From the IMG/VR virus record IMGVR_UViG_3300031647_000750, positions 128,025-192,024 of that record: a DNA stretch of 64,000 nucleotides. The stretch is one strand, 5' to 3'. The first letter of the stretch is position 1. Each line of letters begins with the position of its first letter. The notes under the pieces are model-generated. The model saw only the letters and a program-made list of their open reading frames with translations, was not told where the DNA came from and did no database searches. Both the position numbers and the translations under genes were made by a program. This DNA is from a virus. Its lineage: Duplodnaviria; Heunggongvirae; Uroviricota; Caudoviricetes. Below, in pieces: positions 18,311 to 38,892 of this stretch.

Positions 18311-18314
18311 TAGA

Positions 18315-18450
18315 ACAAGTTGAGAGATCAACACGCTCTTTAAAAATAGTTTGTTTTAATATGTATTATTGTTGATGAAAGTAGGGCTTGATGTTGGAAG
18401 TAGAACCATTAAGGTGTCTGACGATAGTTAACAATAATATATTTTAAAAT
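18315..18450 (+). ncRNA. Candidate small RNA 1 (diverged member of a repeat family). It ends in ...GACGATAGTTAAC followed by A/T-rich sequence.
   Basis: No ORF; follows a promoter; shares 3' motif CGATAGTTAA and an internal GGAAGTAG..AAGG core with units at 18556 and 18715. Confidence 0.3.
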
Positions 18451-18464
18451 GAATTAAAATAGTT

Positions 18465-18498
18465 ATTGACATTGTTATGAAACTTTGTTATACTATTA
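18465..18498 (+). promoter_or_regulatory. Promoter TTATTGACATTG-N-TTATACT driving small-RNA candidates 2a and 2b
   Basis: Consensus-like -35 and -10. Confidence 0.45.
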
Positions 18499-18555
18499 AA
18501 GTGTTCTTTTGTATACACATTAGGTAGATACTGATTTTAGTAGGTATGGTGATTC

Positions 18556-18646
18556 GTGCTGAACGTTGAAGGGAATCGCTAAATGACAAGGGACTTGCTG
18601 TGTGGGATTAATCATCCCTGTCGTAGACAAGCGGTTGTTAAATAAT
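18556..18646 (+). ncRNA. Candidate structured small RNA 2a (core GTGCTGAACGTTGAAGGGAATCGCTAAATGACAAGGG...GGGATTAATCATCCC hairpin)
   Basis: Non-coding; near-duplicate of 18715-18812 with compensatory-looking changes. Confidence 0.35.
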
Positions 18647-18714
18647 GTGTATGCAAAAGTGTATTTTAATATATGCTATTGGGTAGAGCCAGATCGTAGT
18701 AAGCATAAGGGTGC

Positions 18715-18812
18715 GTGCTGAAATTTGAAGGGAATCGCTGAACGACAATAGGTTTAATGTATACAGACTAATCCCTGTATATTGGAACCAACGATAGTTA
18801 AACGATAGTATA
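18715..18812 (+). ncRNA. Candidate structured small RNA 2b (core GTGCTGAAATTTGAAGGGAATCGCTGAACGACAATAGG...)
   Basis: Paralog of 18556-18646; ends CGATAGTTAAACGATAG plus A/T-rich sequence. Confidence 0.35.
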
Positions 18813-18842
18813 TTTTAAAGTTTATTTTAAATAAAGTTTAAT

Positions 18843-18918
18843 TCCTGAATAGCTCAGTTGGTAGAGCAGTAGACTGTTAATCTATTTGTCGTTGGTTCGA
18901 GCCCAACTTCAGGAGCCA
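18843..18918 (+). tRNA. tRNA-Asn (GTT)
   Basis: Canonical cloverleaf: acceptor TCCTGAA/TTCAGGA, D-stem GCTC/GAGC, anticodon loop CTGTTAA, T-arm GTTGG-TTCGAGC-CCAAC, CCA. Confidence 0.85.
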
Positions 18919-19018
18919 TTTTCATAGTTAGTTTATTCCTTCTTACAGGATATCCTGAGAAGATACGAAGAAAACTGATAGCATCACATCTGAAACAATG
19001 ACGATGTGGTGCGGTTGC

Positions 19019-19092
19019 GCCCGATTAGTTAAGTGGTATAACAATTGCCTTGTAAGCATTAGTTGGTGGTTCGATTCCATCATTGGGCACCA
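19019..19092 (+). tRNA. tRNA-Thr (TGT)
   Basis: Acceptor GCCCGAT/ATTGGGC; D-stem GTTA/TAAC; anticodon loop CTTGTAA; T-loop TTCGATT; CCA. Confidence 0.7.
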
Positions 19093-19235
19093 TTTTTTAA
19101 AGTAGTATTAAGTAGTTACCCTAGCGGCTCATAAGAGAGAGTCGGTTCATTGCATATAGTTACAGTTATGTGTAGTCAGCGAAATGTGCATCTGTAAGTG
19201 CATGTAGACTCGGCTAACTTCTTAATATTATTTTT

Positions 19236-19311
19236 GCTGACGTAGCTCACTCGGGAGAGCGCGACCCTGTCAAGGTCGAGGTAGTGGGATCGAAACCCAT
19301 CGTTGGCGCCA
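19236..19311 (+). tRNA. tRNA-Asp (GTC)
   Basis: D-stem GCTC/GAGC; anticodon stem CGACC/GGTCG with loop CTGTCAA; T-stem GTGGG/CCCAT with loop ATCGAAA; CCA. Confidence 0.8.
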
Positions 19312-19357
19312 CATTTAAGATCAAATTTCTTGACCAGAAGTTTGAAACAACGTTTTA

Positions 19358-19448
19358 TAGAGAGTTGGCAGAGTGGTCGAATGCACTGGTCTTGAAAACC
19401 AGCAAGGGTTCATAGCCCTTCGAGAGTTCGAACCTCTCACTCTCTGCC
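19358..19448 (+). tRNA. tRNA-Ser (TGA), class II
   Basis: Perfect acceptor AGAGAGT/ACTCTCT; 3-bp D-stem; anticodon stem CTGGT/ACCAG with loop CTTGAAA; variable hairpin AAGGG/CCCTT; T-arm GAGAG-TTCGAAC-CTCTC; CCA. Confidence 0.85.
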
Positions 19449-19516
19449 ATTTTAGATAGTGCTAAATAGATAGTTCGTCAGATGATGTAACTATTTTATA
19501 GGAATAAACCATGTAT

Positions 19517-19591
19517 AATATAATTTGTCCCATTAGCATAATGGATAGTGCAGTGGATTTCTACTCCATAGATCAGGGTTCGACTCCTTGA
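19517..19591 (+). tRNA. tRNA-Arg (TCT)
   Basis: Perfect acceptor GTCCCAT/ATGGGAC; anticodon loop TTTCTAC; T-arm CAGGG-TTCGACT-CCTTG; CCA; -10 TATAAT upstream. Confidence 0.8.
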
Positions 19592-19711
19592 TGGGACACC
19601 AATTTTAAAGAGCGTACAGTATCATCGCTTGTCAAGTAGATACTCAGGTAACATCAGGCATAGCCCCTCATGATGTTATTAGGTGAGGGGGTGAGACAAG
19701 CACATTTTTAT

Positions 19712-19781
19712 ATCATCATTTGCCAATTGGTAAGGTTAGGCGAAGTAGTCGTTACTGGTTCGATTCCAGTTGGTGATACCA
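19712..19781 (+). ncRNA. tRNA-like element (70 nt) with a good acceptor and T-arm (ACTGG-TTCGATT-CCAGT) and CCA but a compressed, unresolved D/anticodon region
   Basis: Partial fold only. Confidence 0.3.
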
Positions 19782-19789
19782 ATTTTAAT

Positions 19790-19861
19790 GCGGGATGCTA
19801 AGGTATGCACTCCGGGCTCATAACCCGCGAGGTTGAGTTTCGATTACTCTTTCCGCTACCA
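19790..19861 (+). ncRNA. tRNA-like element with a CAT anticodon loop (CTCATAA) but an imperfect acceptor and T-stem
   Basis: Anticodon hairpin CCGGG/CCCGC is recognisable; other arms weak. Confidence 0.3.
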
Positions 19862-19866
19862 CATTA

Positions 19867-19944
19867 GGGCCTATAGCTTAGTTGGTTTAAAGCAGACGAC
19901 TCATAATCGTAAGATCCTTGGTTCAAGTCCAAGTAGGCCCACCA
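19867..19944 (+). tRNA. tRNA with CAT anticodon (elongator Met or Ile2-lysidine type)
   Basis: Perfect acceptor GGGCCTA/TAGGCCC; D-stem GCTT/AAGC; anticodon loop CTCATAA; T-arm CTTGG-TTCAAGT-CCAAG; CCA. Confidence 0.8.
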
Positions 19945-20081
19945 CTATAATTTATTTTTGTATAAGATTTGTCTTATACATTTACAGAAATCGCTTCTGT
20001 TATCGTGACATACAACGACAACGATAGCGTTACACTCGTAACAAATACATGTTAATTATGCGAGTTGACGATAACAGAGGC

Positions 20082-20156
20082 GGCGCTATTCGCGAGTATC
20101 GTATAATGGTTATTACGGGAGGTTTCCAACCTTTTGATGTCAGTTCGATTCTGACT
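20082..20156 (+). tRNA. tRNA-Gly (TCC)
   Basis: Perfect acceptor GCGAGTA/TACTCGC; anticodon loop TTTCCAA; T-arm GTCAG-TTCGATT-CTGAC; CCA. Confidence 0.85.
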
Positions 20157-20178
20157 ACTCGCTCCAATATGTAAGAAG

Positions 20179-20264
20179 TAAAGAACATGCCTTGGTGGTG
20201 GAATTAGGTATACACATCAGATTTAAAATCTGACGACTTCGGTCATGCGGGTTCAAGTCCCGCT
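20179..20264 (+). tRNA. tRNA-Leu (TAA), class II
   Basis: Anticodon stem TCAGA/TCTGA with loop TTTAAAA; variable hairpin GAC-TTCG-GTC; T-arm GCGGG-TTCAAGT-CCCGC; CCA. Confidence 0.85.
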
Positions 20265-20296
20265 CAAGGCACCAAAATTAAAATAGAAGATGTAAT

Positions 20297-21028
20297 ATGA
20301 ATAGTTTGTTTGAATACACAGAAGCAGTAGAAGAGTGCAAAGGTTCGTTAGAAGGTGATGGTGATAATAAGTTATTTACCGAAGCAGAGCGTGTTCTATC
20401 TACTGAAATAAACAACGAAGAAAAGATATTAAAGCATCCGATATTACATGAAGCGTTTGATCGCATCGTAGAGCAACATGTACCAAATCAATCAACTGCA
20501 TTTTTATCATTATGCACTGCTACTCGTCCTTATAACAAGAGCAAGAAGTGGAAAGGATTCATCAACAAGTTTGGTGGTAAGGTAGATATGATAGTTGTAT
20601 CTAATGGTGGTATGATGCCACAACAGTTTTGGAAAAGTTGGCCCTATTTGAATTACGATGGGGGTGATCATTATGATGTTAAAATGTATCAAGATATTAT
20701 GCATGAACGATTATTGAAGTTTTTTAGGAAGCACAATTACAGTAATGTTATTGCAAACTTTAGACCTAATTTAATCAATCATCAACCAGCACATGATGCG
20801 CTTTCTATTCTGAAAGAAGAAGGTAGCATTGGTGATTATATTGTAATGCCTAATCAGGAGTTGTATGATAAGGCACAGTCATTAGGTTGGCGACCACCAC
20901 AAGGTCAAGGTGATATGTTCCCTGATTTAACCAATACGATACTGAGTGCATTAACTGCTCAAGTGGAAGAATTCGGGTATGATGAAGATTTATTTACTGT
21001 TCATGAAAAATTAAAGTACAATAAGTAG
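20297..21028 (+). CDS. Hypothetical protein
   Basis: ORF; start immediately downstream of the tRNA cluster. Confidence 0.45.
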   Translation: MNSLFEYTEAVEECKGSLEGDGDNKLFTEAERVLSTEINNEEKILKHPILHEAFDRIVEQHVPNQSTAFLSLCTATRPYNKSKKWKGFINKFGGKVDMIVVSNGGMMPQQFWKSWPYLNYDGGDHYDVKMYQDIMHERLLKFFRKHNYSNVIANFRPNLINHQPAHDALSILKEEGSIGDYIVMPNQELYDKAQSLGWRPPQGQGDMFPDLTNTILSALTAQVEEFGYDEDLFTVHEKLKYNK

Positions 21029-21073
21029 GTTATTTTTATAGTATAAATAATACTATAGACAGGGAGAAAGATA

Positions 21074-21748
21074 TTGTTCAAGGGAATATATAATCTTTTT
21101 AAGCAGAAAGAAGAGCCTATAGCAGAGATGATTGAAATCCCTGTTAAAAACCCAGAATTACCTCATATTGTGTTTATACACGGTGCTGGATGTAGTCATC
21201 GCAGTTGGAATTATATATTAGCAAAACTTAACCCTACCCGTTACACTATGTTAGAGTATTCGGTAGATGATAAGTTTTATACTAATCTAAATAAACTGTC
21301 GACTATTGTTGGTCAAATACATGATAGGGATTTATTTATAATATCTCATTCTATGGGTGGTATATATGCATTGCATTTATGTCAGAGTTTTAGTCATAGA
21401 GTAATTGGTTCAATATCTATCGCGACTCCGTTTGCGGGATCGAGAACAGCAGATTTTGTAAAATATGTATATCCATCGTATATATTGTTTCGAGATGTTG
21501 GAGTAAGAAGTGCGCCTATTATGAGGTGTCATGATATTACAATCAATGTACCTTGGACACAGATAGTTACGACAGATGGGCATGTACCGTGGCATAAGGG
21601 TGAGAACGATGGTGTTGTGACGGTAGAAAGTCAGCGTCATCGTAAAGATATAGATTATGTAGAAATACATGTAACCCACCATGAAGCGTTGGTGAGTGAT
21701 GAAGCATTAGATATTATAAAAGAAAAATTAGATATCAAAAACGCTTGA
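21074..21748 (+). CDS. Alpha/beta-hydrolase fold protein (GxSxG: SHSMGG)
   Basis: HGAG..SW oxyanion-type motif plus nucleophile elbow ISHSMGGIYALHL. TTG start after RBS GGGAGAAAG; an alternative ATG exists at 21128. Confidence 0.5.
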   Translation: MFKGIYNLFKQKEEPIAEMIEIPVKNPELPHIVFIHGAGCSHRSWNYILAKLNPTRYTMLEYSVDDKFYTNLNKLSTIVGQIHDRDLFIISHSMGGIYALHLCQSFSHRVIGSISIATPFAGSRTADFVKYVYPSYILFRDVGVRSAPIMRCHDITINVPWTQIVTTDGHVPWHKGENDGVVTVESQRHRKDIDYVEIHVTHHEALVSDEALDIIKEKLDIKNA

Positions 21749-21822
21749 CAGAACACGTTACATAGTGTATAATAATTTATTAGATAAATAAAGTAGTAAG
21801 TATGAAGTGGTTACATAATCGT

Positions 21823-21898
21823 GGGGATATAGCTCAGTTGGGAGAGCGACTGCCTTGCACGCAGTAGGTCGTAGGTTCGATCCCTATTATCTCCACCA
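21823..21898 (+). tRNA. tRNA-Ala (TGC), copy 1
   Basis: GGGGATATAGCTCAGTTGGGAGAGC...CTTGCAC...GGTTCGATCC...TATCTCCACCA canonical. Confidence 0.9.
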
Positions 21899-21947
21899 TT
21901 ATGTGACTATTAGTCTAATAAATAAAGTAGCAAGTATGAAGTACAAT

Positions 21948-22023
21948 GGGGATATAGCTCAGTTGGGAGAGCGACTGCCTTGCACGCAGTAGGTCGTAGG
22001 TTCGATCCCTATTATCTCCACCA
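21948..22023 (+). tRNA. tRNA-Ala (TGC), copy 2, identical to copy 1 and part of a ~120-bp segmental duplication
   Basis: Identical sequence; the upstream flank AAATAAAGTAG(T/C)AAGTATGAAGT is also duplicated. Confidence 0.9.
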
Positions 22024-22058
22024 TTTTAAAATTAAAGAGATATCAAATTTCTTTAAAA

Positions 22059-22134
<76 letters not shown>

Positions 22135-22142
22135 AATAATCA

Positions 22143-22167
22143 GACTCCCTTCGGGGAGTTTTTTGTT
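22143..22167 (+). terminator. Rho-independent terminator ending the tRNA cluster
   Basis: GACTCCC-TTCG-GGGAGT followed by TTTTTTG. Confidence 0.75.
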
Positions 22168-22210
22168 TCTGCAATAAATACAATTATGAAAATTTATAAG
22201 AATAATCCGA

Positions 22211-23236
22211 ATGTATGACATTAAAACAATAGAATTGGAATTAGCAACTGTGTGCAATGCATATTGTCCCGTATGTATTCGCTATGATGCAAGAGACGAA
22301 GGTTTATTTTTAAACCCCAAAGCCAATCTTAATCAATTGATAGATCTAGATACTATCGACAAATGTTTTAAATCAGACAAAATACCCGATGACGTAGAAG
22401 TGAGTCTAGTTGGTACTTCTGGCGATCCACTTGCTCATCCTAAAATTTTAGATATTATCAAATTGATATTACATCATAAGTCGCATGCAACATTTAATAT
22501 CCATACTAATGGTGGACTTAGATCAACAAAATTATTCGCTGAACTTGCACATATATTAGGAGATGGCGATAGGTTTTGTTTTAGTTTAGATGGGTTAGCA
22601 GATACCAACCATATATATCGAATAGGGGTTGACTTCAAGAAAGTAATATCTAATATGACTGCATTCATTGAAGCGGGCGGCACACCAATTTGGCAATTTG
22701 TGATATTTGATTGGAACAAACATCAGATAGAAGAATGTAGAAAATATGCATTTGATTTAGGCTGTAGAGCATTTGAGTCTCGCGAAAATGTCAATCCCGG
22801 GCTTATAGATGTCGCCATCGCATCTGCAAATAAGCAGATAGTTAATGCTGTATCTCCATCGTTTTATTCTGATAGTATGGTCGAGTCTGATGATTATGAT
22901 TACATAGACGATGCGTGTATTCAAGAACAAGGAATATTCATGGCACCAGATGGTAAAGTATATCCTTGTTGTATGTTCTATGCGGAACGTGCGGGTCCAG
23001 GTTCTACATTGGTGTACGATACCATGTATAAGAAGTTTGGATATGATTGGAATGATTTAACTATATATTCACTAGATCAGATTCTAGATCATGCTTGGTG
23101 GGATGAACTACATACCAGCATAGTTAAAAGTCCATGTGTTACATGCATCAATAACTGTGGTGCTGTTCGTGATGAACGTAGTAATTCTGACATAAACGAA
23201 AAGGCATATCAAAATATTTCAAGGACATTAATATGA
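22211..23236 (+). CDS. Radical SAM enzyme, short form (paralog D), with a C-terminal YPCC domain
   Basis: ATVCNAYCPVC is a C-x3-C-x2-C motif; LVGTSGDPLAHP is present; C-terminal DGKVYPCCMFY plus CVTCINNC. Confidence 0.7.
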   Translation: MYDIKTIELELATVCNAYCPVCIRYDARDEGLFLNPKANLNQLIDLDTIDKCFKSDKIPDDVEVSLVGTSGDPLAHPKILDIIKLILHHKSHATFNIHTNGGLRSTKLFAELAHILGDGDRFCFSLDGLADTNHIYRIGVDFKKVISNMTAFIEAGGTPIWQFVIFDWNKHQIEECRKYAFDLGCRAFESRENVNPGLIDVAIASANKQIVNAVSPSFYSDSMVESDDYDYIDDACIQEQGIFMAPDGKVYPCCMFYAERAGPGSTLVYDTMYKKFGYDWNDLTIYSLDQILDHAWWDELHTSIVKSPCVTCINNCGAVRDERSNSDINEKAYQNISRTLI

Positions 23237-24971: not shown

Positions 24972-25000
24972 TTGACAAACAGCCACTTAGTTGATATAAT
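24972..25000 (+). promoter_or_regulatory. Promoter AAGTGTTGACAAAC-17-TATAAT upstream of clpP
   Basis: Consensus hexamers; member of the AAGTGTTGACA family. Confidence 0.55.
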
Positions 25001-25032: not shown

Positions 25033-25647
25033 ATGTTAGTACCAACAGTAGTAGAATCAACAGGACGTGGAGAACGCGCTTATGATATTTATAGTCGCTT
25101 GCTTCGTGATCGGATTATTATGCTCAATGGAGAAGTAAACGATCACACCGCAAACCTAATCGTAGCACAGATGTTATTTTTGGAATCAGAAAATCCATCA
25201 GAAGACATCAATTTTTACATCAATAGTGGCGGTGGTTCTGTCACCGCTGGACTTAGTATCTATGATACTATGCAGTATATCAATTCACCAGTGTCTACCA
25301 TCGTAATGGGACAAGCGTGTTCAATGGGATCATTGTTATCGCAAGCGGGCGCTCCAGGAAAGCGATTTGTTTTACCTAACAGTCGTACTATGATTCATCG
25401 TGTTAGTTCGGGCACTCAGGGTACACGTGGTAGTATTCATGTACAAGAACTTGAGTTTGAAGATGCAAAGCGACATATGGATGAGTCAGTTAATTTGAAC
25501 AATCGTCTTACGCAGTTGTATGTAGATCATAGCAGCAAAGGAAAATCATTTGATGAGTTTTATGCTACTATGAAGCACGACACTTTCATGTCAGCACCAG
25601 AAGCAGTTGAATTTGGTCTTGCTGATAAAGTGATTGCTAAGATCTAG
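25033..25647 (+). CDS. clpP: ATP-dependent Clp protease proteolytic subunit ClpP
   Basis: Full-length ClpP homology: YINSPGGSVTAG, catalytic [12 protein letters not shown](V) His. Confidence 0.85.
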
Positions 25648-25753
25648 ATTGATCAGAAGTTGGACAGTCAGTTCAACTTCATTTAGTCCCGCCAATGATA
25701 AATATGTATATCAGTCATATTATTGTGACATTAATATAAAAGGAATTTAATCA

Positions 25754-26602
25754 ATGACGTACAGACACGACAACAAAGATCCCAATATGAGTGGATCACA
25801 AAAAGCATTAAAATATGACGTAGATGGTGAACCATCATTGCGCGTAAGCATTAAGGAGACTTCTAATTTGGTTACGCCTGTTGGCTCAAACAAGCCATAC
25901 TTGCTAGAAGTAGCACAGGGATTAATTCCAGGATACGGTTGCAACCACAAGTTTGGTGCAGTGCCCTCTATGAGTAATAACACCCAAGGTAGTGTATGGG
26001 ATGTTTCTGACACAGTATACCCATTTAACGCATTTGGTGCTGGTAGTGTTATCAACGTTGAACGTACTAATGCAGCAGATGTAGGTAGTGTAATTAGAAT
26101 GCAAGGCTTAGATGTAAACTTTAATTTCATCGAAGAAGACATCCCACTTAATGCGAGTGACCAAGTAGGCACACTGGTATTCATTAGATTAAACAGAGCG
26201 TTCATGGTTACTGATGGTGGATCAAACATTGGCGACATTAATTTTGAAATTGGGGTACCAGGCGGTGTAACGATTGCTCGTATAACAGAAGGTTATGGAC
26301 AGACGCTTATGGCAGTGTACACAGTGCCTGCAGGCGTAACAGCATATTTACTTAATATTTCTGCTACTGCATCAGATGACGCAGATGCCACAATCTCACT
26401 ATTAAAACGTGAGGCTTCTAGTGACGTTTTTAGAATAATGACAACATTTGAATTACAAAAACGTGGCGGCGGATTTACACAAGAGTTCCCTTGTGCACTA
26501 ACGATCGCAGAAATGACAGACATTGATTTGAGAGTTATTTCACGTGCACGTGACAAGCGTTTCACGGGAACATTTGATATGCTATTAGTAGATAATGTAT
26601 AA
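25754..26602 (+). CDS. Hypothetical protein
   Basis: ORF with RBS aaaggaat upstream. Confidence 0.4.
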   Translation: MTYRHDNKDPNMSGSQKALKYDVDGEPSLRVSIKETSNLVTPVGSNKPYLLEVAQGLIPGYGCNHKFGAVPSMSNNTQGSVWDVSDTVYPFNAFGAGSVINVERTNAADVGSVIRMQGLDVNFNFIEEDIPLNASDQVGTLVFIRLNRAFMVTDGGSNIGDINFEIGVPGGVTIARITEGYGQTLMAVYTVPAGVTAYLLNISATASDDADATISLLKREASSDVFRIMTTFELQKRGGGFTQEFPCALTIAEMTDIDLRVISRARDKRFTGTFDMLLVDNV

Positions 26603-26610
26603 ATAAGTAT

Positions 26611-27297
26611 ATGAGATTACATAATTTATTTGAAAACAACAAACCAATATTAGATGAGGGTCCAAAAGATCCTCATATCTTTAAATCAGTATTTCTTGCG
26701 GGCGGACCAGGTTCTGGTAAAAGTTTTGTAGCAGGTAAATTACTTAAAGGCGGCGGTCTTAAAGTAGTTAATTCTGATGATATTTACGAATACTTAATGA
26801 AACAGCAGAACTTAGAAATGGACCCAGAGACTATTTTTAGTCCTCAAGGTCAAGCAATTCGTGATAAAGCGAAAGGTCTAACAGGCATCCGTCAAGGCGG
26901 ATTTCTAGATGGTCGTTTAGGTCTTGTTGTAGACGGAACTGGTAAAGATACTGGTAAAGTAAAAAAGGAAAGTGATAAACTACGTGATTTAGGTTATGAT
27001 ACGATGATGGTATTCGTTAATACTAGTTTAGAAGTAGCACAAGCGCGAAATCAAGCACGATCTAGAAAACTTGCACCAGAAGTAGTTGAGGCGATGTGGA
27101 ATAAAGTTCAACAGAACATAATGAAATTCCAGCAAATCTTTGGCTCGGCGAACTTCCATGTTATTGATAATTCTGGTGGATTAGAAGACCCAGATAGAGC
27201 AGAGAATTTCGATACCGTATATAAAGAAATACAAAAGTTTATTAATACACCACCATCAAGTCATATTGCTAAAAAATGGCTAGATAATAATAAATAA
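26611..27297 (+). CDS. P-loop NTPase, putative nucleotide or nucleoside kinase
   Basis: Walker A GGPGSGKSF near the N-terminus; size typical of small kinases. Confidence 0.45.
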   Translation: MRLHNLFENNKPILDEGPKDPHIFKSVFLAGGPGSGKSFVAGKLLKGGGLKVVNSDDIYEYLMKQQNLEMDPETIFSPQGQAIRDKAKGLTGIRQGGFLDGRLGLVVDGTGKDTGKVKKESDKLRDLGYDTMMVFVNTSLEVAQARNQARSRKLAPEVVEAMWNKVQQNIMKFQQIFGSANFHVIDNSGGLEDPDRAENFDTVYKEIQKFINTPPSSHIAKKWLDNNK

Positions 27298-27401
27298 TTC
27301 TATAACATATTAAACCATCTTATAACTAAGAACTCATGTATTGCTAAATATAGATATATGGGTTTTTTTATGCCTGTAACATAATAAGAGGAACACATAT
27401 C

Positions 27402-27746
27402 ATGTATACATATCGTGTTAAATTAGTAAGAGTAATAGACGGTGACACCATTGATGCAGAAATCGATCTAGGCTTCAATGTGGTGATGAGACAGCGAATT
27501 AGATTGTACGGTATAGCGACACCAGCGACTCACACAAAAGATTTAGAAGAAAAAGAGCGTGGTCTAGCATCAAAGCAGCGCCTGACCGAACTATTACCAA
27601 AAGAGTTTACTGTTGAAACAATATTAAACAAGCGTGGAAAGATTGGTAGAATAATGGGCATCGTGTATGTAGAAGAATATGATACGTCTATCAATATCAA
27701 TGATGTAATGGTTGAAGAAGGTCACGCAATTAGGTATAATAAGTAG
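27402..27746 (+). CDS. SNase (thermonuclease)-fold protein with substituted catalytic residues
   Basis: VIDGDTID and IRLYGIATPATH resemble the SNase DGDT and R-x-x-G-(I/V)-D-(A/T)-P-E motifs, but the Asp/Glu are replaced (A-T-P-A). Confidence 0.45.
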   Translation: MYTYRVKLVRVIDGDTIDAEIDLGFNVVMRQRIRLYGIATPATHTKDLEEKERGLASKQRLTELLPKEFTVETILNKRGKIGRIMGIVYVEEYDTSININDVMVEEGHAIRYNK

Positions 27747-27756
27747 AGGATAAATT

Positions 27757-29313
27757 ATGAGATATTTTGGTATTTGGACAGTTTTTGTAGCATTAACTAT
27801 TAGCGTAGTAGCAGCGTATTATTCAATCATTGGACTAGTTGCTATATTCGCCGCATCAATGGTTCCTGTCATAATCATGGGCAGTGTATTAGAAGTAGGC
27901 AAAATAACAACCGCAGTATGGTTACATAAGTACTGGGATAAAGCAACATTCTTGATGAAATCTTATTTAACTATTGCTGTACTGTTACTCATGTTTATTA
28001 CTAGTATGGGTATTTTTGGTTTCCTATCTAAAGCACATATTGAACAGACAGCAATGGCTGGTGAAGGTGTAGCACAATTGGAACGTGTGGAAGCAGATAT
28101 TGCACGAAATCAATCAGTTATCGCTCGTGCAGATGATAAGATGATCAAACTAGAATCATCAGATGAAACAATAGATACCAATATTCAAACAAAGATTGCG
28201 ACAGAAGAAAATCGTATCACAGGGAAGTCACAGAGATTACAAACAGCAATAGCAGAACAAACAGCAGCGATAGAGTTAGCAGTTGCACCGTATATGACAC
28301 AGCAACAAGCAGCAGACAATGCACTCGCATTAATGAATGGGTTTGTTCAGAATAATGAAATTAAGAAGATACAAGGATTAATTGGCGAAGTACAAGATGG
28401 TTCATATGGAACAAAGACTGCCAATGGAGTGAAGGAATATAGAAATAACCTACTTGATGAACGTGCGACAGCATTGTCTATTGTCAATGAATTACGAGCA
28501 GATACCAGAACTGAAATCGCTAGACTACGTGCAAATTTTGAACAACAGGTAGAATCATCGAATGCACTGATTAGTCGAATGACAACTGAACTTAGCGTAG
28601 TTGAACGTGTAGACACAGAAGCAGACATAACTGCATTGCAATTGAAAATTAAGAATTCAGAAGAATCACTTGACAAACTCTATGAAACAAAGTATACTAT
28701 AGAGACTAAAAGCAGAAAGTTAGAAGCCGAAGTAGGACCTGTTAAATACATAGCAGCATTAATATATGGTGATGATCCTACTAAAGACACATTGGAAGAT
28801 GCTGTACGATGGATTATTATGATACTTGTAGTTGTGTTTGATCCGTTAGCCGTTGTATTAGTAATTGCGGGCATTTCTATTCTTGAGCAAAAGAAAGTGA
28901 ACGTAGTACGCGATGATCAGGCTGAATACGATAGAGCAAGAGTACAGCGTATGGTTGATAATACACCTCATAAAGAAGTGGTGGTTGAGCCAATTGAAGT
29001 TGCTGAAAAAGAAACTTCAAAAGTAGAAACAGAATTAGAGCGTGAGATTCGTGAATTAAATGAACAACGTGAATTAAATGAATCAAGTCGTAGCATACAA
29101 AAAGAAGCAAATCAGCAAGCATTATTGCTTGTTAAAGATATATCAAATCGCATGATTCAAAGCGGAAGCAATATCACATGTATCAGTGATGTAATAGCAT
29201 CAGACGATACAGGAACCCTGAAGCAGTTATTAGAGGGTGCTGATAAAGACACATTGAATGATGTACAAACTATTATAGCAAACACAATTAATCAAATACA
29301 GGAAAGTAAATGA
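27757..29313 (+). CDS. Polytopic membrane protein (about 4 N-terminal TM helices) with a long coiled-coil domain
   Basis: Hydrophobic segments at the N-terminus and around residue 350; extensive heptad-like Q/E/A-rich region. Confidence 0.45.
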   Translation: MRYFGIWTVFVALTISVVAAYYSIIGLVAIFAASMVPVIIMGSVLEVGKITTAVWLHKYWDKATFLMKSYLTIAVLLLMFITSMGIFGFLSKAHIEQTAMAGEGVAQLERVEADIARNQSVIARADDKMIKLESSDETIDTNIQTKIATEENRITGKSQRLQTAIAEQTAAIELAVAPYMTQQQAADNALALMNGFVQNNEIKKIQGLIGEVQDGSYGTKTANGVKEYRNNLLDERATALSIVNELRADTRTEIARLRANFEQQVESSNALISRMTTELSVVERVDTEADITALQLKIKNSEESLDKLYETKYTIETKSRKLEAEVGPVKYIAALIYGDDPTKDTLEDAVRWIIMILVVVFDPLAVVLVIAGISILEQKKVNVVRDDQAEYDRARVQRMVDNTPHKEVVVEPIEVAEKETSKVETELEREIRELNEQRELNESSRSIQKEANQQALLLVKDISNRMIQSGSNITCISDVIASDDTGTLKQLLEGADKDTLNDVQTIIANTINQIQESK

Positions 29314-29753
29314 AGCAAGACAACAGTAGTTATACAATAACAAATCCTGATCTATTTTTAACAAATGATGGGATTTCTGTATTAATCACGAGTACTAACA
29401 AAGAATTCATTGACGAAGTAAAATTAATAGTAGAGCATCACATTGAACATAGTATTGTGTTTAATGTGCAGCCTTCTAGCACCACCGAAACAGGTGTTCC
29501 CTGGATGTGGTATGTGAGTCGTGCAGTTGACATTATGTTTGTTGATTTAGACACATGTGCTTGGGTAGACATTTGTACTGCATTGACAAAAGAACAGGAT
29601 GATAATCATGTTGTTGTGTTTTTTAGTGACAGGAACAAAAAACGCGATGCTATTAAATTGATAAATGCAACGAGTAAGTATATTATACTGAAAGATATTA
29701 AAGAGATCAGTGCATACATGGAAACACATGTTCAACTGTCTGCTCCTTTATGA
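29310..29753 (+). CDS. Hypothetical protein
   Basis: ORF with ATGA coupling on both sides. Confidence 0.4.
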   Translation: MKQDNSSYTITNPDLFLTNDGISVLITSTNKEFIDEVKLIVEHHIEHSIVFNVQPSSTTETGVPWMWYVSRAVDIMFVDLDTCAWVDICTALTKEQDDNHVVVFFSDRNKKRDAIKLINATSKYIILKDIKEISAYMETHVQLSAPL

Positions 29754-30979
29754 CAGAAATGTTAAAATGCGCATTTTGTCATAAGACACAAAAGCAAGTT
29801 TCTAAGTTACTTGCTGGCATAGACGAGCACATTTATATTTGTAATAAATGTGTTCATTTGTCGCACAGCATTTTAGAGAAAGAAGATAAAACAAAAACAC
29901 TCAAAGATAAGAAACGTAAGTTACGTGATATTTTTGATACTGTCCCACCTAAACAAGTCCATGAATATTTAAACGAACATGTGATTGGTCAAGAAAAAGT
30001 TAAGAAAGGAATTAGTGTAGCAATATACAATCATTGTAAGCGAATCTTTAATGACACCACTGTAAAAGTACAAAAATCAAATGTATTACTATTGGGTCCT
30101 ACAGGTGTTGGTAAAACACTTATTGCACAAACGCTAGCAAGTTCAATGGATGTGCCATTCGTCATTACAGATGCAACTACGATTACTGAAAGTGGTTATG
30201 CTGGAGATGATGCAGAAGTATTGATACATAAGTTATTCCAAAATTCTGATTATGATATTGCACGAACCGAGATTGGTATCATCTACGTAGATGAGATAGA
30301 CAAGAAAGCCAAGCGTAATGACATGGTAAGTTTAAGTCGTGATGTATCAGGCGAAGGTGTTCAACAAAGTTTACTGAAACTCATGGAAGGCACCACCATC
30401 GCAGTACCTAATAAACATGATAGATCTCCTGAAAAAATAGATATAAATACAGAGAACATCTTATTCATTGTGGGCGGTGCTTTTATTGGATTAGAGAAAG
30501 TAGTTGAGCAGCGTCTAGGTAAATCAAAAATAGGATTTACTGGAAAAATGGCAAGCAAAGATTATAATTGGGAAGATGAACTTGAAACGAGTGATCTAGT
30601 TCAATATGGTCTAATACCAGAATTCTTAGGAAGATTACCATCAGTTAATGTATTACATGAATTATCTAAAGATGATTTGGTGCGTGTGTTGACTGAACCG
30701 AAAAATAGTATTGTAAAGCAATATCAAGCATTATTTGAATTAGATAATGTTAGTTTAGAATTTAAGCCATCTGCATTAAGAGCAATCGCAGAGACTTCTA
30801 TTAAGCAAGATCTAGGTGCAAGGGGATTACGCAAAATAATCGACAATGCACTCATTGATACACAATATGAATTACCCGATCTTGTAAGACAGGGCGTTCA
30901 GAAGATTATTATTAGTGAAGAAACTATAACTAGAGGAACAACACCACACATGATCAAAGGATCCATAAGTGAAAAATAA
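29750..30979 (+). CDS. clpX: ATP-dependent Clp protease ATP-binding subunit ClpX
   Basis: N-terminal C4 zinc-binding domain (CAFCHK...CNKC), Walker A LLLGPTGVGKT, Walker B IIYVDEIDK, GYVG-like pore region. Confidence 0.85.
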   Translation: MTEMLKCAFCHKTQKQVSKLLAGIDEHIYICNKCVHLSHSILEKEDKTKTLKDKKRKLRDIFDTVPPKQVHEYLNEHVIGQEKVKKGISVAIYNHCKRIFNDTTVKVQKSNVLLLGPTGVGKTLIAQTLASSMDVPFVITDATTITESGYAGDDAEVLIHKLFQNSDYDIARTEIGIIYVDEIDKKAKRNDMVSLSRDVSGEGVQQSLLKLMEGTTIAVPNKHDRSPEKIDINTENILFIVGGAFIGLEKVVEQRLGKSKIGFTGKMASKDYNWEDELETSDLVQYGLIPEFLGRLPSVNVLHELSKDDLVRVLTEPKNSIVKQYQALFELDNVSLEFKPSALRAIAETSIKQDLGARGLRKIIDNALIDTQYELPDLVRQGVQKIIISEETITRGTTPHMIKGSISEK

Positions 30980-31475
30980 AAAACCAATGTTGATGTTTAA
31001 TCAATTCATAACATTTCGTGAAGTACGTGTCAATTTTGAAGACGGCGAAAGTAAAGTACTAAATACAGTAGAGGCATTATCTATCGCAGAAGGTAGAGGA
31101 CTGGATTTGATTGTTATCAATGAAATTGCAGTTCCACCAGTATGTAAGATTGCTGATAAAAATAAGTTTTTGTATGAACAGAAACAAAAACAAAAAGACA
31201 CTGCAAAAAAGGCAAGAGCCAGTACAGTAGAACATAAAGAAATCCGTATGGGTTTGAATATCGAAGAAAATGATATTACTGTTAAATCTAATAAGATTAA
31301 AACATTATTGGAAAAGAAATGCAGAGTTACTATTACCGTGACCTTGAAGGGTCGTGAACGAAGTAAGCAACATATAGCACGTGAACTAATCCAATCTATT
31401 GCAGATCGATTAGGTGTTGAGTTGGAATTATTCGGTGCAAGTGGTAATAGAGTTAGTGCGAAAATAAAAGGTTAA
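30969..31475 (+). CDS. infC: Translation initiation factor IF-3; start codon uncertain (GTG at 30969, ATG at 30987 or 30993), overlapping the clpX stop
   Basis: REVRVNFEDGE...LDLIVINEIAVPPVCKIADKNKFLYEQKQ and the C-terminal domain align along their length with bacterial IF3. Confidence 0.75.
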   Translation: MKNKKPMLMFNQFITFREVRVNFEDGESKVLNTVEALSIAEGRGLDLIVINEIAVPPVCKIADKNKFLYEQKQKQKDTAKKARASTVEHKEIRMGLNIEENDITVKSNKIKTLLEKKCRVTITVTLKGRERSKQHIARELIQSIADRLGVELELFGASGNRVSAKIKG

Positions 31476-31477
31476 GA

Positions 31478-31720
31478 ATGGCATATAATAGAAATGAGCG
31501 TCAAGGTTTGACGGTTGCAGTATACAATGATAACATCGAACAAGCGTTGCGTAAATTTAAGAAGAAGATGACCACAGACGGTAAACTTCAAGAAGTAAAG
31601 GATCGTGCAGAATTTACACCAAAATTTGAAAAGCGTAAAGCATCACAAGCAGCAGCAAAGGCACGATTGCGCAAGCAATTGGCACAAGAGAATAATGTTA
31701 CTAAAAAGCGTTTATTCTAA
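31478..31720 (+). CDS. rpsU: 30S ribosomal protein bS21
   Basis: 80 aa, basic, with the MAYNRNERQGLTVAVYNDNIEQALRKFKKK...RLF pattern characteristic of S21. Confidence 0.75.
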   Translation: MAYNRNERQGLTVAVYNDNIEQALRKFKKKMTTDGKLQEVKDRAEFTPKFEKRKASQAAAKARLRKQLAQENNVTKKRLF

Positions 31721-31747
31721 ATAGACAACTGGTAACTTTACACTAAC

Positions 31748-31773
31748 AAAGGAGCATTAAATGCTCCTTTTTG
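31748..31773 (+). terminator. Rho-independent terminator after rpsU
   Basis: AAAGGAGCAT-TAA-ATGCTCCTTT followed by TTG. Confidence 0.7.
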
Positions 31774-31830
31774 CTTGCTTTATTATTAATTCCGTAGTAT
31801 AATATATGTTAACCAATAAAGGAAATACCA

Positions 31831-32139
31831 ATGACACAATCATCAGCATCAACATCATCCGAACTAACACACACACGACTACGTGGCCCATCAAAGTATA
31901 ATGTTATCTTTTTAAATGATGACGCAACCTCTATGGAATTTGTTATTTCGGTACTAACTGCTATCTTTCATAAAGATGCAACAGAAGCACAAGAAGTAGC
32001 AACACACATTCACGAGAAAGGGAAAGCAATCGCTGGAACCTATATCTACGAAGTTGCAGAACAAAAAGTAACCGAGACTGTATCTAATGCCCGAACCGCA
32101 GGGTTTCCACTGTCATTGACATTGGAAGAAGTTGAATAA
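31831..32139 (+). CDS. clpS: ClpS adaptor protein (N-degron recognition)
   Basis: YNVIFLNDDATSMEFVISVL...HEKGKAIAGTYIYEVAE matches the ClpS core [20 protein letters not shown]...HYQGKAICGVFTAEVAE. Confidence 0.75.
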   Translation: MTQSSASTSSELTHTRLRGPSKYNVIFLNDDATSMEFVISVLTAIFHKDATEAQEVATHIHEKGKAIAGTYIYEVAEQKVTETVSNARTAGFPLSLTLEEVE

Positions 32140-36355: not shown

Positions 36356-37420
36356 ATGAACGCAGTTAACGCTTGGACAGAGTTTCAACCATTGAAGAAA
36401 GTAGTATTGGGTGCACCATTCCCAGAAACTGCATTTGATTGGCACGAAGATGAAGAGACACGAGACACTATGCGACAAATCTTCCGTGAAACAGCCGAAG
36501 ATATTGAAGTATTAGCACAACTATTAGAAGCACGTGGAATTGAAGTGGTACGTCCCAAGAACATCTTTACAATCACTGGTGAAGAACAGATTCAATTACC
36601 GTGGGCTCATTGTGCGTTTCCGAACCATCCATTAATGCCGCGCGATACGTTGATGCCATATGGTCATTCAATTTTTGAATGCTTTACAGGCGGTGACAAT
36701 CGTTACTTTGAAAACCTAGCATACTATGATCACGTAGTAGAATGGTTTAAACAAGGTGCTGATTGGATTTCAATGCCTGGCTGCATGGTAGAAACTGGTA
36801 AAGGATATGATGAATACGTAGCAGAGCAGCGTGTACTGTATCATGCTGCAAATATGATCAAGTGTGGTGATACTATCTTATTCAGTCAACCATACGAAGG
36901 TGACAACAAGCGTGGACGTGGTACGAATTTGGGCAAGGAATGGATGCAAAGAGAAATCAAACAGCGTTATCCTGATACTAAATTTATTGATATTCCAATT
37001 GGTGGTCACATAGATGGTAAGATTGCATTATTGAAGCCGGGTGTTCTTATGACGTGGAACAAAGCATGGGTCCCAGAAGAATTCAAGAATTGGACAATCA
37101 TTGAAGTAGAAGATGATTTTGACATGCCAGCAGATTTTCAAAATACACGTAAGCGTAGATACTATAAAGAGTATGTACAGAAGTGGTTAAGTCATTGGGT
37201 AGGTTATGCAGACGAGTCTGTATTTGATGTTAATGTATTATCATTGGATGAAAAGACGGTAATCTGTACAGGTAAAAACGATGCAGCATTTGCTGAAATG
37301 GAAGCAAACGGAATTGAACCAATTGTTTGGCGATTCCGTCATCAGTATTTTTGGGATGGTGGTATCCATTGCTTGACTAGTGATATCGTACGTGAAGGTA
37401 ATTGTGAGAATTATTTATGA
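36356..37420 (+). CDS. Amidinotransferase-fold (pentein superfamily) enzyme, agmatine/arginine deiminase-like
   Basis: C-terminal WDGGIHCLTSD matches the catalytic-Cys signature GG(N/G)IHC(I/M)T of agmatine and peptidylarginine deiminases; upstream Asp/His-rich segments. Confidence 0.45.
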   Translation: MNAVNAWTEFQPLKKVVLGAPFPETAFDWHEDEETRDTMRQIFRETAEDIEVLAQLLEARGIEVVRPKNIFTITGEEQIQLPWAHCAFPNHPLMPRDTLMPYGHSIFECFTGGDNRYFENLAYYDHVVEWFKQGADWISMPGCMVETGKGYDEYVAEQRVLYHAANMIKCGDTILFSQPYEGDNKRGRGTNLGKEWMQREIKQRYPDTKFIDIPIGGHIDGKIALLKPGVLMTWNKAWVPEEFKNWTIIEVEDDFDMPADFQNTRKRRYYKEYVQKWLSHWVGYADESVFDVNVLSLDEKTVICTGKNDAAFAEMEANGIEPIVWRFRHQYFWDGGIHCLTSDIVREGNCENYL

Positions 37421-38475
37421 GTATGCTATGGCGTGATAATATACAAAGCCTACAAGTAGATGTTACTAGTTATTGTAATGCTAAGTGTGGTGGATGCGCT
37501 AGAAATGACGACGGTCATGAAACAAGACCGGGTCTTATTCTTGAAAACTTTGATGTTGATGTATGGAATCGTATGGCAGAGCATGATACCAAAGATATTT
37601 TTATTAATGAACTGGTATTAAACGGGAATTGGGGTGACTCTATGATGCATCCTAAAATTAAAGATATGGTTACAACATTTGCAAAATTTCATCCAGAAGC
37701 GAGTTTATATATTCATACCAATGGCAGTATGCGCACGACCAAATTCTGGGCTTCTTTTGCCAAAGTTTGTCGTCAATTCTCAAATCATCGTGTAGTTTTT
37801 GCAGTAGACGGTCTAGAAGATACACATGCGATATATCGTCGTAATACCGACTTTCTTAAAATTATGGAGAATATTAAAGCATTCACCGATGCGAATGGAC
37901 GAGCGAGTGTAACCATGACCCTATTTGAACACAATAAACATCAAGTAGAAGAAGTTAAAAAATTAGCACAATCGCTTAATGCAGATTTTGCCTTACGTTA
38001 CAGTCATGGAGATGAACTAGAAGTAATTGCGCCTGGCGAAAATTATATGATATATGCATGTGATGAATTGCCCGAAGAGGAGGTAGAAGTAGAAGTAGAG
38101 CATGATAATGAAGTAGAGCATGATAATTATAGATTAAGTGATTTACCAAATTATATGGATAATCTAATTATATCAGATGCAATAGAACCTGTCGCATCAA
38201 CATGTCCGTGGTTAGCAGATCGTCAAGTGCAAATTGATCCATGGGGTACGGTGTGGCCATGTTGTCATATTAGTAATCATGCAAATTCCTTTTCATCAGA
38301 GTATACTGGGATCGCCGCAACTGATGATAATTTCGATGAAGGTAAACTAGCAAATAACCTGAAGCATACGCCGTTATATGATATCCTTAGTAATCGGTGG
38401 TATGCGGATGTGTTACCTGATGCGGTAAAACATGAAAAATGGCTAGTTTGTCGTGATTCATGCTTTAGTGATTAA
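37417..38475 (+). CDS. Radical SAM enzyme, short form (paralog E), with a C-terminal WPCC domain and an acidic (EVEVEHDN)2 insert
   Basis: VTSYCNAKCGGC is a C-x3-C-x2-C motif; LNGNWGDSMMHP is present; C-terminal WGTVWPCCHISNHA...CRDSC. Confidence 0.7.
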   Translation: MSMLWRDNIQSLQVDVTSYCNAKCGGCARNDDGHETRPGLILENFDVDVWNRMAEHDTKDIFINELVLNGNWGDSMMHPKIKDMVTTFAKFHPEASLYIHTNGSMRTTKFWASFAKVCRQFSNHRVVFAVDGLEDTHAIYRRNTDFLKIMENIKAFTDANGRASVTMTLFEHNKHQVEEVKKLAQSLNADFALRYSHGDELEVIAPGENYMIYACDELPEEEVEVEVEHDNEVEHDNYRLSDLPNYMDNLIISDAIEPVASTCPWLADRQVQIDPWGTVWPCCHISNHANSFSSEYTGIAATDDNFDEGKLANNLKHTPLYDILSNRWYADVLPDAVKHEKWLVCRDSCFSD

Positions 38476-38479
38476 AGTG

Positions 38480-38508
38480 TTGACATACACCACCAATTGC
38501 TGTATAAT
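38480..38508 (+). promoter_or_regulatory. Promoter AAGTGTTGACATAC-17-TATAAT
   Basis: Consensus hexamers. Confidence 0.5.
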
Positions 38509-38538
38509 ATGTATATACATTAATAACTTGAGAGAAAT

Positions 38539-38892
38539 ATGAAGAATTATATAATAATTAACACTGTATTTGCACTCGCAATCTACTTAGGATTATACAG
38601 TGGACTTGACAATGTGTTATCAAGTCTTGCGATTGGATACGCATATGCAACCGCATGGATCGCCATTGTGCTTGGTTTGCTTGTTGGTTGGTTTTTGTAT
38701 GATGAAATGGTTGAACAAATACAAAATTCCGATGGTTGGAAACCACCTCTTTATTTTGATACATTATTCGACATAGCAGTTATCATAGCCTTTGCATATG
38801 TGGAATCTTATGTTACTGCGGTATTATATACGGCGCATTTACTTATGTGGAACGATATGCACAATACTGCAAGAAAATTAAATCTTAAATAG
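38539..38892 (+). CDS. Small polytopic membrane protein
   Basis: 3-4 hydrophobic segments. Confidence 0.4.
   Translation: MKNYIIINTVFALAIYLGLYSGLDNVLSSLAIGYAYATAWIAIVLGLLVGWFLYDEMVEQIQNSDGWKPPLYFDTLFDIAVIIAFAYVESYVTAVLYTAHLLMWNDMHNTARKLNLK

Follow-up and report, generated by a model that had tools for sequence, protein, structure and literature searches.

The 64,000-nucleotide (nt) stretch of DNA analysed here, referred to below as the window, covers positions 128,025 to 192,024 of the IMG/VR virus record IMGVR_UViG_3300031647_000750 and carries the genes clpP, clpX, infC, rpsU and clpS, which encode the peptidase ClpP, the unfoldase ClpX, translation initiation factor IF3, ribosomal protein bS21 and the adaptor ClpS. 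Taken together, these genes probably represent a conserved, phage-assembled set of host-type Clp and translation-initiation genes. Open reading frame (ORF) calls and family profile matches located all five of them, intact and on the plus strand, where a preliminary description of this DNA had placed them. The reading is carried by the identity of the genes, by intact catalytic and docking motifs, by synteny, by the geometry of translational coupling and by a promoter; from these features we infer when the block may be expressed, which substrates it may degrade and how it may affect translation.

Organization and conservation of the gene block

The five genes had been described as a module. The genes themselves are real, but they are not contiguous, as five genes without a match to any Clp or translation family lie between clpP and clpX, namely orf282, a gene for an AAA_33/zeta-like kinase, a gene for an SNase-like nuclease, a gene for a membrane protein of 518 amino acids (mem518) and orf147. 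Two extra ClpP-fold genes lie farther downstream, at a distance of 12 and 17 kb, and have different surroundings. From the nuclease gene onward the genes are tightly packed: the nuclease gene is followed after 10 nt by mem518, mem518 overlaps orf147 by 4 nt, and orf147 in turn overlaps clpX by 4 nt. Further on, clpX overlaps infC by 11 nt, a 2-nt gap separates infC from rpsU, and clpS follows after 110 nt.

A scan of IMG/VR with the ClpX protein returned 56 loci (L003-L058). Most of those with enough flanking sequence have the order orf287-clpP-(kinase)-SNase-mem518-orf147-clpX-infC-rpsU-clpS, and the identities of the block proteins to their relatives range from 36 to 79%, varying by gene, with 48-79% given for the block as a whole. 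Three variants lack infC (L014, L021 and L024), several loci have no rpsU match, and no match to orf147 or clpP was obtained for a divergent subgroup (L047-L058) within the stretches fetched. In cellular genomes the homes of these genes are four different operons, tig-clpP-clpX, thrS-infC-rpmI-rplT, rpsU-dnaG-rpoD and clpS-clpA. The cluster therefore appears to have been assembled in phages and not to have been captured as a whole.

ClpP1 and ClpX

The clpP gene (25033 to 25647, plus strand) encodes a protein of 204 amino acids, here called ClpP1, which matches the Pfam family CLP_protease at 7e-64 (215.5 bits, cutoff 20.2). It scores above the cutoff of the NCBIfam model PRK00277 (252.8 bits, cutoff 249) and below that of the equivalog TIGR00493 (235.2, cutoff 308.6). 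In an alignment that includes E. coli ClpP (alignment A2), the catalytic triad Ser97/His122/Asp183 occupies invariant columns, and the N-terminal axial-loop region, which is involved in ClpX/ClpA docking and in gating, is complete and free of gaps against the E. coli N-terminus. ClpP1 carries the motif INSGGG, where 40 of 41 relatives have INSPGG. Its handle region contains a 10-amino-acid insertion after the catalytic His that is shared with Pseudomonas phage PA5oct and the closest relatives, but not with other members of the clade. The altered motif and the insertion could affect ring stacking.

ClpX (409 amino acids, 29750 to 30979, plus strand) shows the domains zf-C4_ClpX, AAA_2 and ClpB_D2-small, exceeds two NCBIfam equivalog cutoffs (504.8 against 359 and 473.1 against 370.75) and aligns with residues 11-414 of E. 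coli ClpX. It retains all four Cys of the zinc finger along with the Walker A and Walker B motifs, the IGF loop, the Arg finger and sensor-II (GARGLR). Among related phage ClpX sequences, the IGF motif is present in 60 of 62 and the zinc finger in 58 of 58. The pore-1 loop at about residue 150 reads GYAG instead of the canonical GYVG and keeps the Tyr. As GYAG is found in 48 of 58 related phage ClpX sequences, with GYVG in the other ten (including those of the phages Atu_ph07 and Phosso), it is a variant and not a loss. A complete pair of ClpP and ClpX had been proposed for this DNA, and both family identities as well as the catalytic and docking motifs bear this out. ClpP1 and ClpX are thus likely to constitute a self-sufficient ATP-dependent protease.

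ClpS and its partner unfoldase

The clpS gene (31831 to 32139, plus strand) encodes 102 amino acids with a Pfam ClpS match at 5.5e-27. The Pfam score is well above the cutoff (93.8 against 23), while the protein stays below the equivalog cutoffs of NCBIfam (84.9 against 149). Residues N29, D30, D31, T33, M35 and H61 correspond to the N-degron pocket residues N34, D35, D36, T38, M40 and H66 of E. coli ClpS. The pocket motif NDD-x-T-x-M and the His align with both the E. coli and the Caulobacter protein, N29, D30, T33 and H61 are invariant in 55 of 55 relatives, and the ClpA-contact motif E-x-x-E-x-K is retained. ClpS is not an adaptor of ClpX; it docks on the N-domain of ClpA (in certain phyla, of ClpC) and hands N-degron substrates over to ClpAP. 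The earlier proposal of a ClpXP machine equipped with the ClpS adaptor is therefore right about the genes that are present and wrong about the partner of ClpS. Since the ClpA-contact and pocket residues are kept, the protein should need a ClpA-type partner, which is not encoded in the window. We regard it as a putative N-degron adaptor for a ClpA/ClpC-type unfoldase that would be provided by the host or encoded elsewhere in the phage genome.

Some relatives have a ClpA of their own, namely PA5oct and a phage represented by a 202-kb IMG/VR contig (L148, L067) that also holds homologs of ClpP2, p294 and SbmA, all described below. A scan of IMG/VR for ClpA had no contig in common with the clpX loci and one contig, 3300047480_000545, in common with the ClpP2 loci. 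ClpA is also encoded by Atu_ph07 (PMC7824862).

It is conceivable that ClpS acts mainly on host ClpA, inhibiting or redirecting it so that ssrA-tagged or phage proteins are shielded while the productive degradation falls to the phage ClpXP. It is textbook knowledge that E. coli ClpS inhibits the degradation of ssrA-tagged substrates by ClpAP as well as the autodegradation of ClpA, and such a role would suit both the conserved ClpA-contact (E-x-x-E-x-K) and pocket residues and the lack of any ClpA across 84 kb of sequence. The ClpA genes of PA5oct, Atu_ph07 and the 202-kb marine contig, however, fit a working ClpS-ClpA pair, and the intact N-degron pocket argues for selection on substrate binding. 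We therefore consider inhibition a possible but doubtful main function and retain the N-degron adaptor as the preferred role.

IF3, bS21 and the start of infC

The infC gene (30969 to 31475, plus strand) encodes an IF3 of 168 amino acids with matches to IF3_N (1e-20) and IF3_C (3e-14) and a TIGR00168 score of 118.1 (cutoff 60). N- and C-terminal domains are connected by a Lys-rich linker, and the protein aligns to IF3 in PDB over residues 9-145. Directly behind it, 2 nt past the infC stop, starts rpsU (31478 to 31720, plus strand), which encodes a bS21 of 80 amino acids (S21, 7e-11; Pfam 42.1 against 27; TIGR00030 45.4 against 28.95) that aligns to bS21 in PDB. Compared with bacterial bS21 it has an N-terminal extension of about 8 amino acids, residue 12 of the query corresponding to residue 4 of the PDB chain. 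IF3 and bS21 are in all likelihood both components with a role at the 30S subunit during initiation.

The start codon of infC is most likely the GTG at 30969, which overlaps clpX by 11 nt, as had been suggested. An in-frame TAA at 30966-30968 directly precedes this codon, so that neither an upstream start nor a hidden AUU start is available. A Shine-Dalgarno (SD) motif, AAGGA (30957 to 30961, plus strand), lies within the last clpX codons (…MIKG…), 7 nt before the GTG. This spacing is the mode among the genes of the window, and a motif of at least 5 nt is found at 1.8% of random positions. Initiation at one of the internal ATG codons (30987 and 30993) had been considered as the alternative; no SD motif precedes either of them or the TTG at 30990. 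Public gene calls report the identical 168-amino-acid product. In marine relatives, infC starts between -67 and +13 nt from the clpX stop, with the SD motif mostly inside the final clpX codons, and as to the codon itself, nine distinct marine sequences have GTG or TTG, as have Atu_ph07 and Phosso, and about 24 have ATG.

The preliminary description saw in the non-AUG start a possible case of conserved regulation, since cellular infC is autoregulated through an unusual start codon. That autoregulation depends on an AUU or AUC start, which IF3 rejects (PMC5499595). The two starts are alike in being non-AUG, and GTG or TTG is indeed more frequent among distinct infC sequences (12 of about 36, the window included) than among first-start codons of window genes (10 of 83). 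They differ in the decisive property, however: the E. coli start is AUU and rejected by IF3, whereas that of the phage is GUG and accepted. IF3 accepts AUG, GUG and UUG and represses only the AUU/AUC class, and added IF3 left translation from a GUG start unchanged in vitro (PMC5499595). Because GUG counts among the canonical codons of IF3, and because ATG prevails among the relatives, none of which has a codon of the AUU class, the GTG start does not imply autoregulation of the infC type. With about 24 distinct relatives starting at ATG, with the stop codon directly before the GTG excluding a hidden AUU start and with a tight coupling to clpX which suggests that upstream translation sets expression, a preserved autoregulatory loop is largely refuted and very improbable.

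Transcription of the block

A perfect sigma-70 consensus promoter, TTGACA-17-TATAAT with a TG before the -10 box, is located at 24972 to 25000 on the plus strand, 33 nt upstream of clpP. The window contains 14 such perfect sites between 3928 and 59321 (for example at 24972, 32613, 33280 and 45674), all on the plus strand, against 0.15 expected, and none lies between 25000 and 32613. Several of the 14 share a common extended TTGACAAGTAA… box. The abundance of these sites suggests that the phage leans heavily on host RNA polymerase for its early genes, and the site at 24972 is likely to be the early promoter of the block. The T4-type late promoter motif TATAAATA has just two copies in the region, both within genes, and was uninformative. 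Between rpsU and clpS, at 31748 to 31772 on the plus strand, a terminator-like 10-bp hairpin, AAAGGAGCAU-UAA-AUGCUCCUUU, leads into a U-tract and may close the clpX-infC-rpsU string as a terminator.

Proposed function of the block

From the arrangement described above, the following course of events can be proposed. Host sigma-70 RNA polymerase would initiate at the promoter at 24972 early in infection, and the transcript would run through clpP up to the hairpin behind rpsU. On this transcript orf147, clpX, infC and rpsU would be translationally coupled; given this coupling and the placement of the infC SD motif at the very end of clpX, the amounts of IF3 and bS21 would be tied to that of ClpX at a constant ratio. 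The phage ClpXP, together with ClpS acting via ClpAP, would then reshape protein turnover, while IF3 and bS21 would join host 30S subunits and bias initiation. The active reprogramming of host translation and protein turnover that had been suggested for this phage is a reasonable inference from the gene content. The coupling of an unfoldase gene to two genes of 30S initiation, kept over deep divergence, hints at a joint manipulation of turnover and initiation.

Several observations weigh against this scheme. A terminator pattern scan of the window did not flag the hairpin behind rpsU, and the z-score of its fold is modest (-1.89). Early expression is deduced from the promoter consensus, and the timing may differ, as freshwater Bacteroidetes phages express bS21 late, together with structural genes (PMC9723584). 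No ClpA-like large AAA+ ORF was found in the window or up to 10 kb past either of its ends. Finally, there are the departures from canonical motifs in the protease itself, that is GYAG for GYVG in ClpX and INSGGG with the handle insertion in ClpP1.

Genes between clpP and clpX

The first of the five intervening genes, orf282 (25754-26602; PHROG 8198), lies between clpP and the kinase gene and is missing from nearly all syntenic relatives; it therefore looks like a lineage-specific insertion. The AAA_33/zeta-toxin-like P-loop kinase gene (26611 to 27297) is conserved in the syntenic block. The SNase-like nuclease gene (27402 to 27746) is the first of the tightly packed string. The third conserved gene, mem518 (27757 to 29313), encodes a membrane and coiled-coil protein, is conserved in the block as well, and its stop provides the 4-nt overlap with the start of orf147 (29310 to 29753). 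All of them are on the plus strand.

Of these genes, orf147 deserves attention on account of its position. It is conserved and located directly upstream of clpX in every marine relative in which it was detected. The protein has invariant residues D79, D81, C83 and D87 and belongs to no detectable family. A sub-threshold Pfam Response_reg match (E 0.005) and a beta-alpha pattern seen by eye had raised the idea of a receiver-domain ClpX adaptor similar to CpdR or RssB. This idea was rejected, as hhalign against a receiver-domain alignment gave a probability of 0.9%, and a profile search of PDB returned nothing significant. By its position, orf147 may be a candidate partner or adaptor of ClpX.

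Additional ClpP-fold proteins

The first of the two additional ClpP-fold proteins, ClpP2 (226 amino acids, 44617 to 45297, plus strand), is a divergent ClpP-family paralog with a Pfam CLP_protease match at 3e-32. Its Ser-His-Asp triad is intact, aligned with ClpPs in PDB and in invariant columns of alignment A2. At the N-terminus the axial-loop motif GER…DIYSRLL is replaced by a Lys/Pro-rich extension, and the protein stays below all NCBIfam cutoffs for ClpP and for head maturation proteases (104.8 against 249; 62.7 against 120). For both reasons we list it as a ClpP-family paralog and not as ClpP proper. In the window, ClpP2 is situated between a gp31/GroES-like gene and the clamp-loader gene. 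The former (44282-44614), directly upstream of ClpP2, encodes a gp31/GroES-like 'head morphogenesis' protein (PHROG 931, 1.5e-11).

At least 154 IMG/VR stretches, some of them belonging to contigs of about 340 kb, contain ClpP2 homologs with 75-89% identity, and the neighbourhoods of 80 of these loci were fetched (L147-L226). Genes that neighbour ClpP2 in the window accompany it in 4 of the 80, a phosphoribosyl pyrophosphate (PRPP) synthetase homolog in 29 of the 80, and in one case (L150) the gene lies among genes for primase, PRPP synthetase, PsiE and a DnaB-like helicase. The conservation of ClpP2 far exceeds that of ClpX and ClpP1 and suggests either strong constraint or a recent exchange between phage lineages. 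It appears to be a stand-alone, highly conserved ClpP-family peptidase of many marine phages, where it occurs in other gene contexts.

The matches of ClpP1 and ClpP2 to phage protein families raise the question of whether the ClpP-family genes encode prohead maturation proteases, with ClpX as an assembly chaperone and the block in the service of virion morphogenesis. The top PHROG matches of both proteins are 'head maturation protease' families, RefSeq names the ClpPs of PA5oct and Atu_ph07 accordingly, and Iyer et al. suggest a possible contribution of phage ClpA and ClpX to the assembly of virions (PMC7824862). ClpP1 itself, however, scores 252.8 bits and above the cutoff with the cellular model, against 80.2 (cutoff 120) with the head-maturation model, and keeps the full N-terminal docking region. 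ClpP2 lacks axial loops, as prohead proteases do, and adjoins the gp31/GroES-like gene; this gene is, however, the sole head-related match among the window genes scanned, which gave no match to capsid, portal or scaffold proteins, and ClpP2 homologs elsewhere sit among primase, PRPP synthetase and helicase genes. PA5oct ClpP bears an electrospray ionization tandem mass spectrometry (ESI-MS/MS) note, but such notes are also found on its thymidylate synthase and ligase. A role in head maturation is thus unlikely, and we keep to the reading of ClpP1 and ClpX as a host-type protease.

The second protein, p294 (49054 to 49938, plus strand), had been described as a membrane ClpP/SppA-like protease. 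It has a transmembrane helix at about residues 31-53 and no match in Pfam (including CLP_protease and SppA/S49), PHROG, NCBIfam or the sequences of PDB. Nine of ten distant homologs lack a family match as well, and one has a sub-threshold CLP_protease match. The ClpP fold itself was confirmed by profile and structure comparison. A p294 profile (A3) matched the ClpP profile (A2) in hhalign with 95.7% probability (E 9e-9), and an AlphaFold model with a predicted local distance difference test score (pLDDT) of 87.3 gave a top 50 of Foldseek hits that were all ClpP (probability 1.00, E about 1e-7; target-normalised TM-score 0.58-0.69). A shallow alignment had given a pLDDT of 58.7, a model which was not used, and an hhalign probability of 28%; adding distant homologs remedied both. 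Across 39 divergent homologs the motifs SPGG, C-A-S181-A-C and G-I-H204 are invariant, with Cys residues flanking the catalytic Ser. S181 and H204 align to Ser97 and His122 of ClpP, and the position of the Asp is taken by a non-conserved Ala, which points to a Ser/His dyad or to a different third residue. The paralogs thus keep catalytic residues, Ser-His-Asp in ClpP2 and the putative catalytic Ser and His in p294. An exhaustive profile search found 221 cluster representatives at E <= 0.001, and this family of unannotated ClpP-fold membrane proteins merits a family definition.

The genes around p294 (47226-51017) encode a MotA/ExbB-like protein, three small or membrane ORFs and an SbmA/BacA-like transporter. 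Homologs of the ExbB-like gene, orf207, orf83, p294 and SbmA occur in identical order in two other loci (L147 and L148), and by its gene content this region looks like a membrane-transport cluster. That p294 faces the periplasm is a guess. Neither ClpP2 nor p294 belongs to the clpX block.

Origin of the window and other genes

All substantial ORFs of the window are on the plus strand, and the GC content is 35-41%. The clamp-loader gene at 45735 shares 53% identity with its counterpart in PA5oct and 40-45% with those of Phosso, RsoM2USA, XacN1 and Atu_ph07. No DNA nearly identical to the window was found among GenBank phages. The exact ClpX protein recurs in 42 collection blocks, contigs of up to 192 kb carry the exact p294 protein, and p294 homologs have marine-metagenome and Tara labels. 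Single-gene similarities, marine labels and the lack of a GenBank DNA match together indicate that the window comes from the genome of a large marine tailed phage which is uncultivated and has PA5oct (Arenbergviridae) as a relative. The 'moraphage' lineage (PMC12619734) was considered and set aside as a different lineage, with predicted hosts that are mostly Bacteroidota.

All five genes are of typical cellular type, and certain 'phage' database records with clpP-clpX resemble bacterial contamination, so that the window might in principle be bacterial or a mis-binned contaminant with ordinary housekeeping copies. We consider this extremely improbable. The genes lie on one strand together with 18 clustered tRNA genes and a T4-type clamp loader that is 53% identical to that of PA5oct, the gene order fits no bacterial operon, the block recurs across 56 IMG/VR viral contigs, and the identity of ClpX to those cellular-type ClpX sequences that it matched is just about 45-49%. 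A phage origin is therefore assumed throughout.

The 18 tRNA genes are clustered at 16239-22134, upstream of the Clp block, and include two each for Met, Thr, Ala and Leu. Four radical-SAM proteins, a DUF5591 protein, a QueD-like PTPS, a ferredoxin and a phosphoribosyltransferase are encoded at 8949-13805, 20297-23236 and 37417-40546. The radical-SAM and QueD-like set suggests a pathway for 7-deazaguanine or another nucleotide or tRNA modification. Genes for Fe-S assembly (40582-40983 and 61655-63343) encode an IscA-like Fe-S_biosyn protein, a class-V aminotransferase resembling cysteine desulfurase and a NifU_N scaffold, and may work in support of the radical-SAM enzymes. A part in protein turnover or quality control may also be played by two other products, a DUF2201 metallopeptidase/VWA-like protein and a Band_7 (SPFH) protein, encoded at 3989-5266 and 56525-57436.

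Comparison with known phages and systems

Compared with bacterial ClpXP, as known from E. coli, the phage ClpX aligns over the zinc finger, Walker, IGF and sensor-II motifs, and ClpP1 has both the triad and the axial loops. Likewise, the phage ClpS has the same pocket and ClpA-contact residues as the E. coli and Caulobacter proteins. The differences lie in the chimeric gene order, in which four operons are merged and no clpA stands beside clpS, and in details of the proteins: ClpX has GYAG and an RKH loop reduced to KH, and ClpP1 has INSGGG and the 10-amino-acid handle insertion.

Of the cultured phages compared, PA5oct (vB_PaeM_PA5oct, Arenbergviridae, MK797984, EST35_0255-0298) is the closest, with identities to the window of 63% for ClpP, 53% for the clamp loader, 43% for ClpS and 40% for ClpX. 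Its gene order is clpX overlapped by rpsU, Hsp20, clpS about 1.5 kb on, FtsH, clpP, GroES-like gene and clamp loader, DnaJ and clpA. As in the window, a GroES-like ('chaperonin') gene precedes the clamp loader, and GTP cyclohydrolase I and QueD, which are 7-deazaguanine genes, are located next to its clpX. In contrast to the window, there is no IF3 in that region, and PA5oct is not named among the IF3 search matches listed. FtsH, Hsp20, DnaJ and ClpA are present in the region, clpP lies downstream of clpX and not upstream, and the GroES-like gene and the clamp loader have no ClpP2 between them. As a phage of Pseudomonas aeruginosa that has most of the cluster, PA5oct is a tractable test system.

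The jumbo phages Atu_ph07 (Agrobacterium) and Phosso (Sinorhizobium), with genomes of about 470-490 kb, have clpX directly followed by infC with a GTG start and an AAGGAG SD motif, and both encode ClpS and ClpP in the same genome. Phosso, with bS21 7 kb downstream, holds all five genes. Here clpX and infC are separated by 60-66 nt, whereas they overlap in the window; moreover, rpsU is not adjacent, clpP is distant, ClpX has GYVG, and the proteins are only 35-57% identical. In Cronobacter phage GAP32, infC (GAP32_313) is directly followed by a gene with a ClpS domain (GAP32_314), and in other Rak2-like phages IF3 and ClpS-like matches lie a few hundred bases apart. These phages are a third lineage with a physical link between IF3 and part of the Clp system. 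The GAP32 ClpS-domain protein differs in its length of 177 amino acids, with about half of the window ClpS aligned, and no clpX or rpsU is annotated within the 12-kb stretch around the pair.

Phages encoding bS21 have been described repeatedly (Mizuno 2019; Al-Shayeb 2020; Chen 2022), and their bS21 has an N-terminal extension like that found here. In freshwater Bacteroidetes phages bS21 is late and located among structural genes, whereas in the window it is coupled to clpX-infC downstream of a sigma-70 promoter.

IF3 or bS21 is thus linked with ClpX or ClpS in four lineages, that is in the marine clade, PA5oct, Atu_ph07/Phosso and the Rak2-like phages. One might speculate that these genes form a single functional unit, in which Clp, possibly with orf147 as an adaptor, would remove host initiation or ribosome-associated proteins and phage IF3 and bS21 would replace them. 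We regard such a 'destroy-and-replace' strategy as quite unlikely on present grounds; if true, it would amount to a takeover of the 30S initiation platform.

The combination of genes had been called uncommon, which is correct in part only: it occurs on at least 56 IMG/VR contigs, the genes are linked in cultured jumbo phages, and the literature has noted them. Iyer et al. reported ClpP, ClpS, ClpA, ClpX and IF3 in jumbo phages (PMC7824862), Al-Shayeb et al. found IF1, IF3 and S21 in huge phages (PMC7162821), and Chen et al., with 900 genomes, recorded genes for Clp proteases and Hsp20 in the vicinity of phage bS21 genes (PMC9723584). The components and their pairwise linkages are therefore already known. 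The contribution of the marine clade is the complete and tightly coupled arrangement clpX-infC-rpsU-clpS, kept across the 56 IMG/VR contigs. With clpP nearby, it is the most complete version so far of a cluster that is seen piecemeal in cultured jumbo phages, and its carriers are a widespread group of uncultivated large marine phages.

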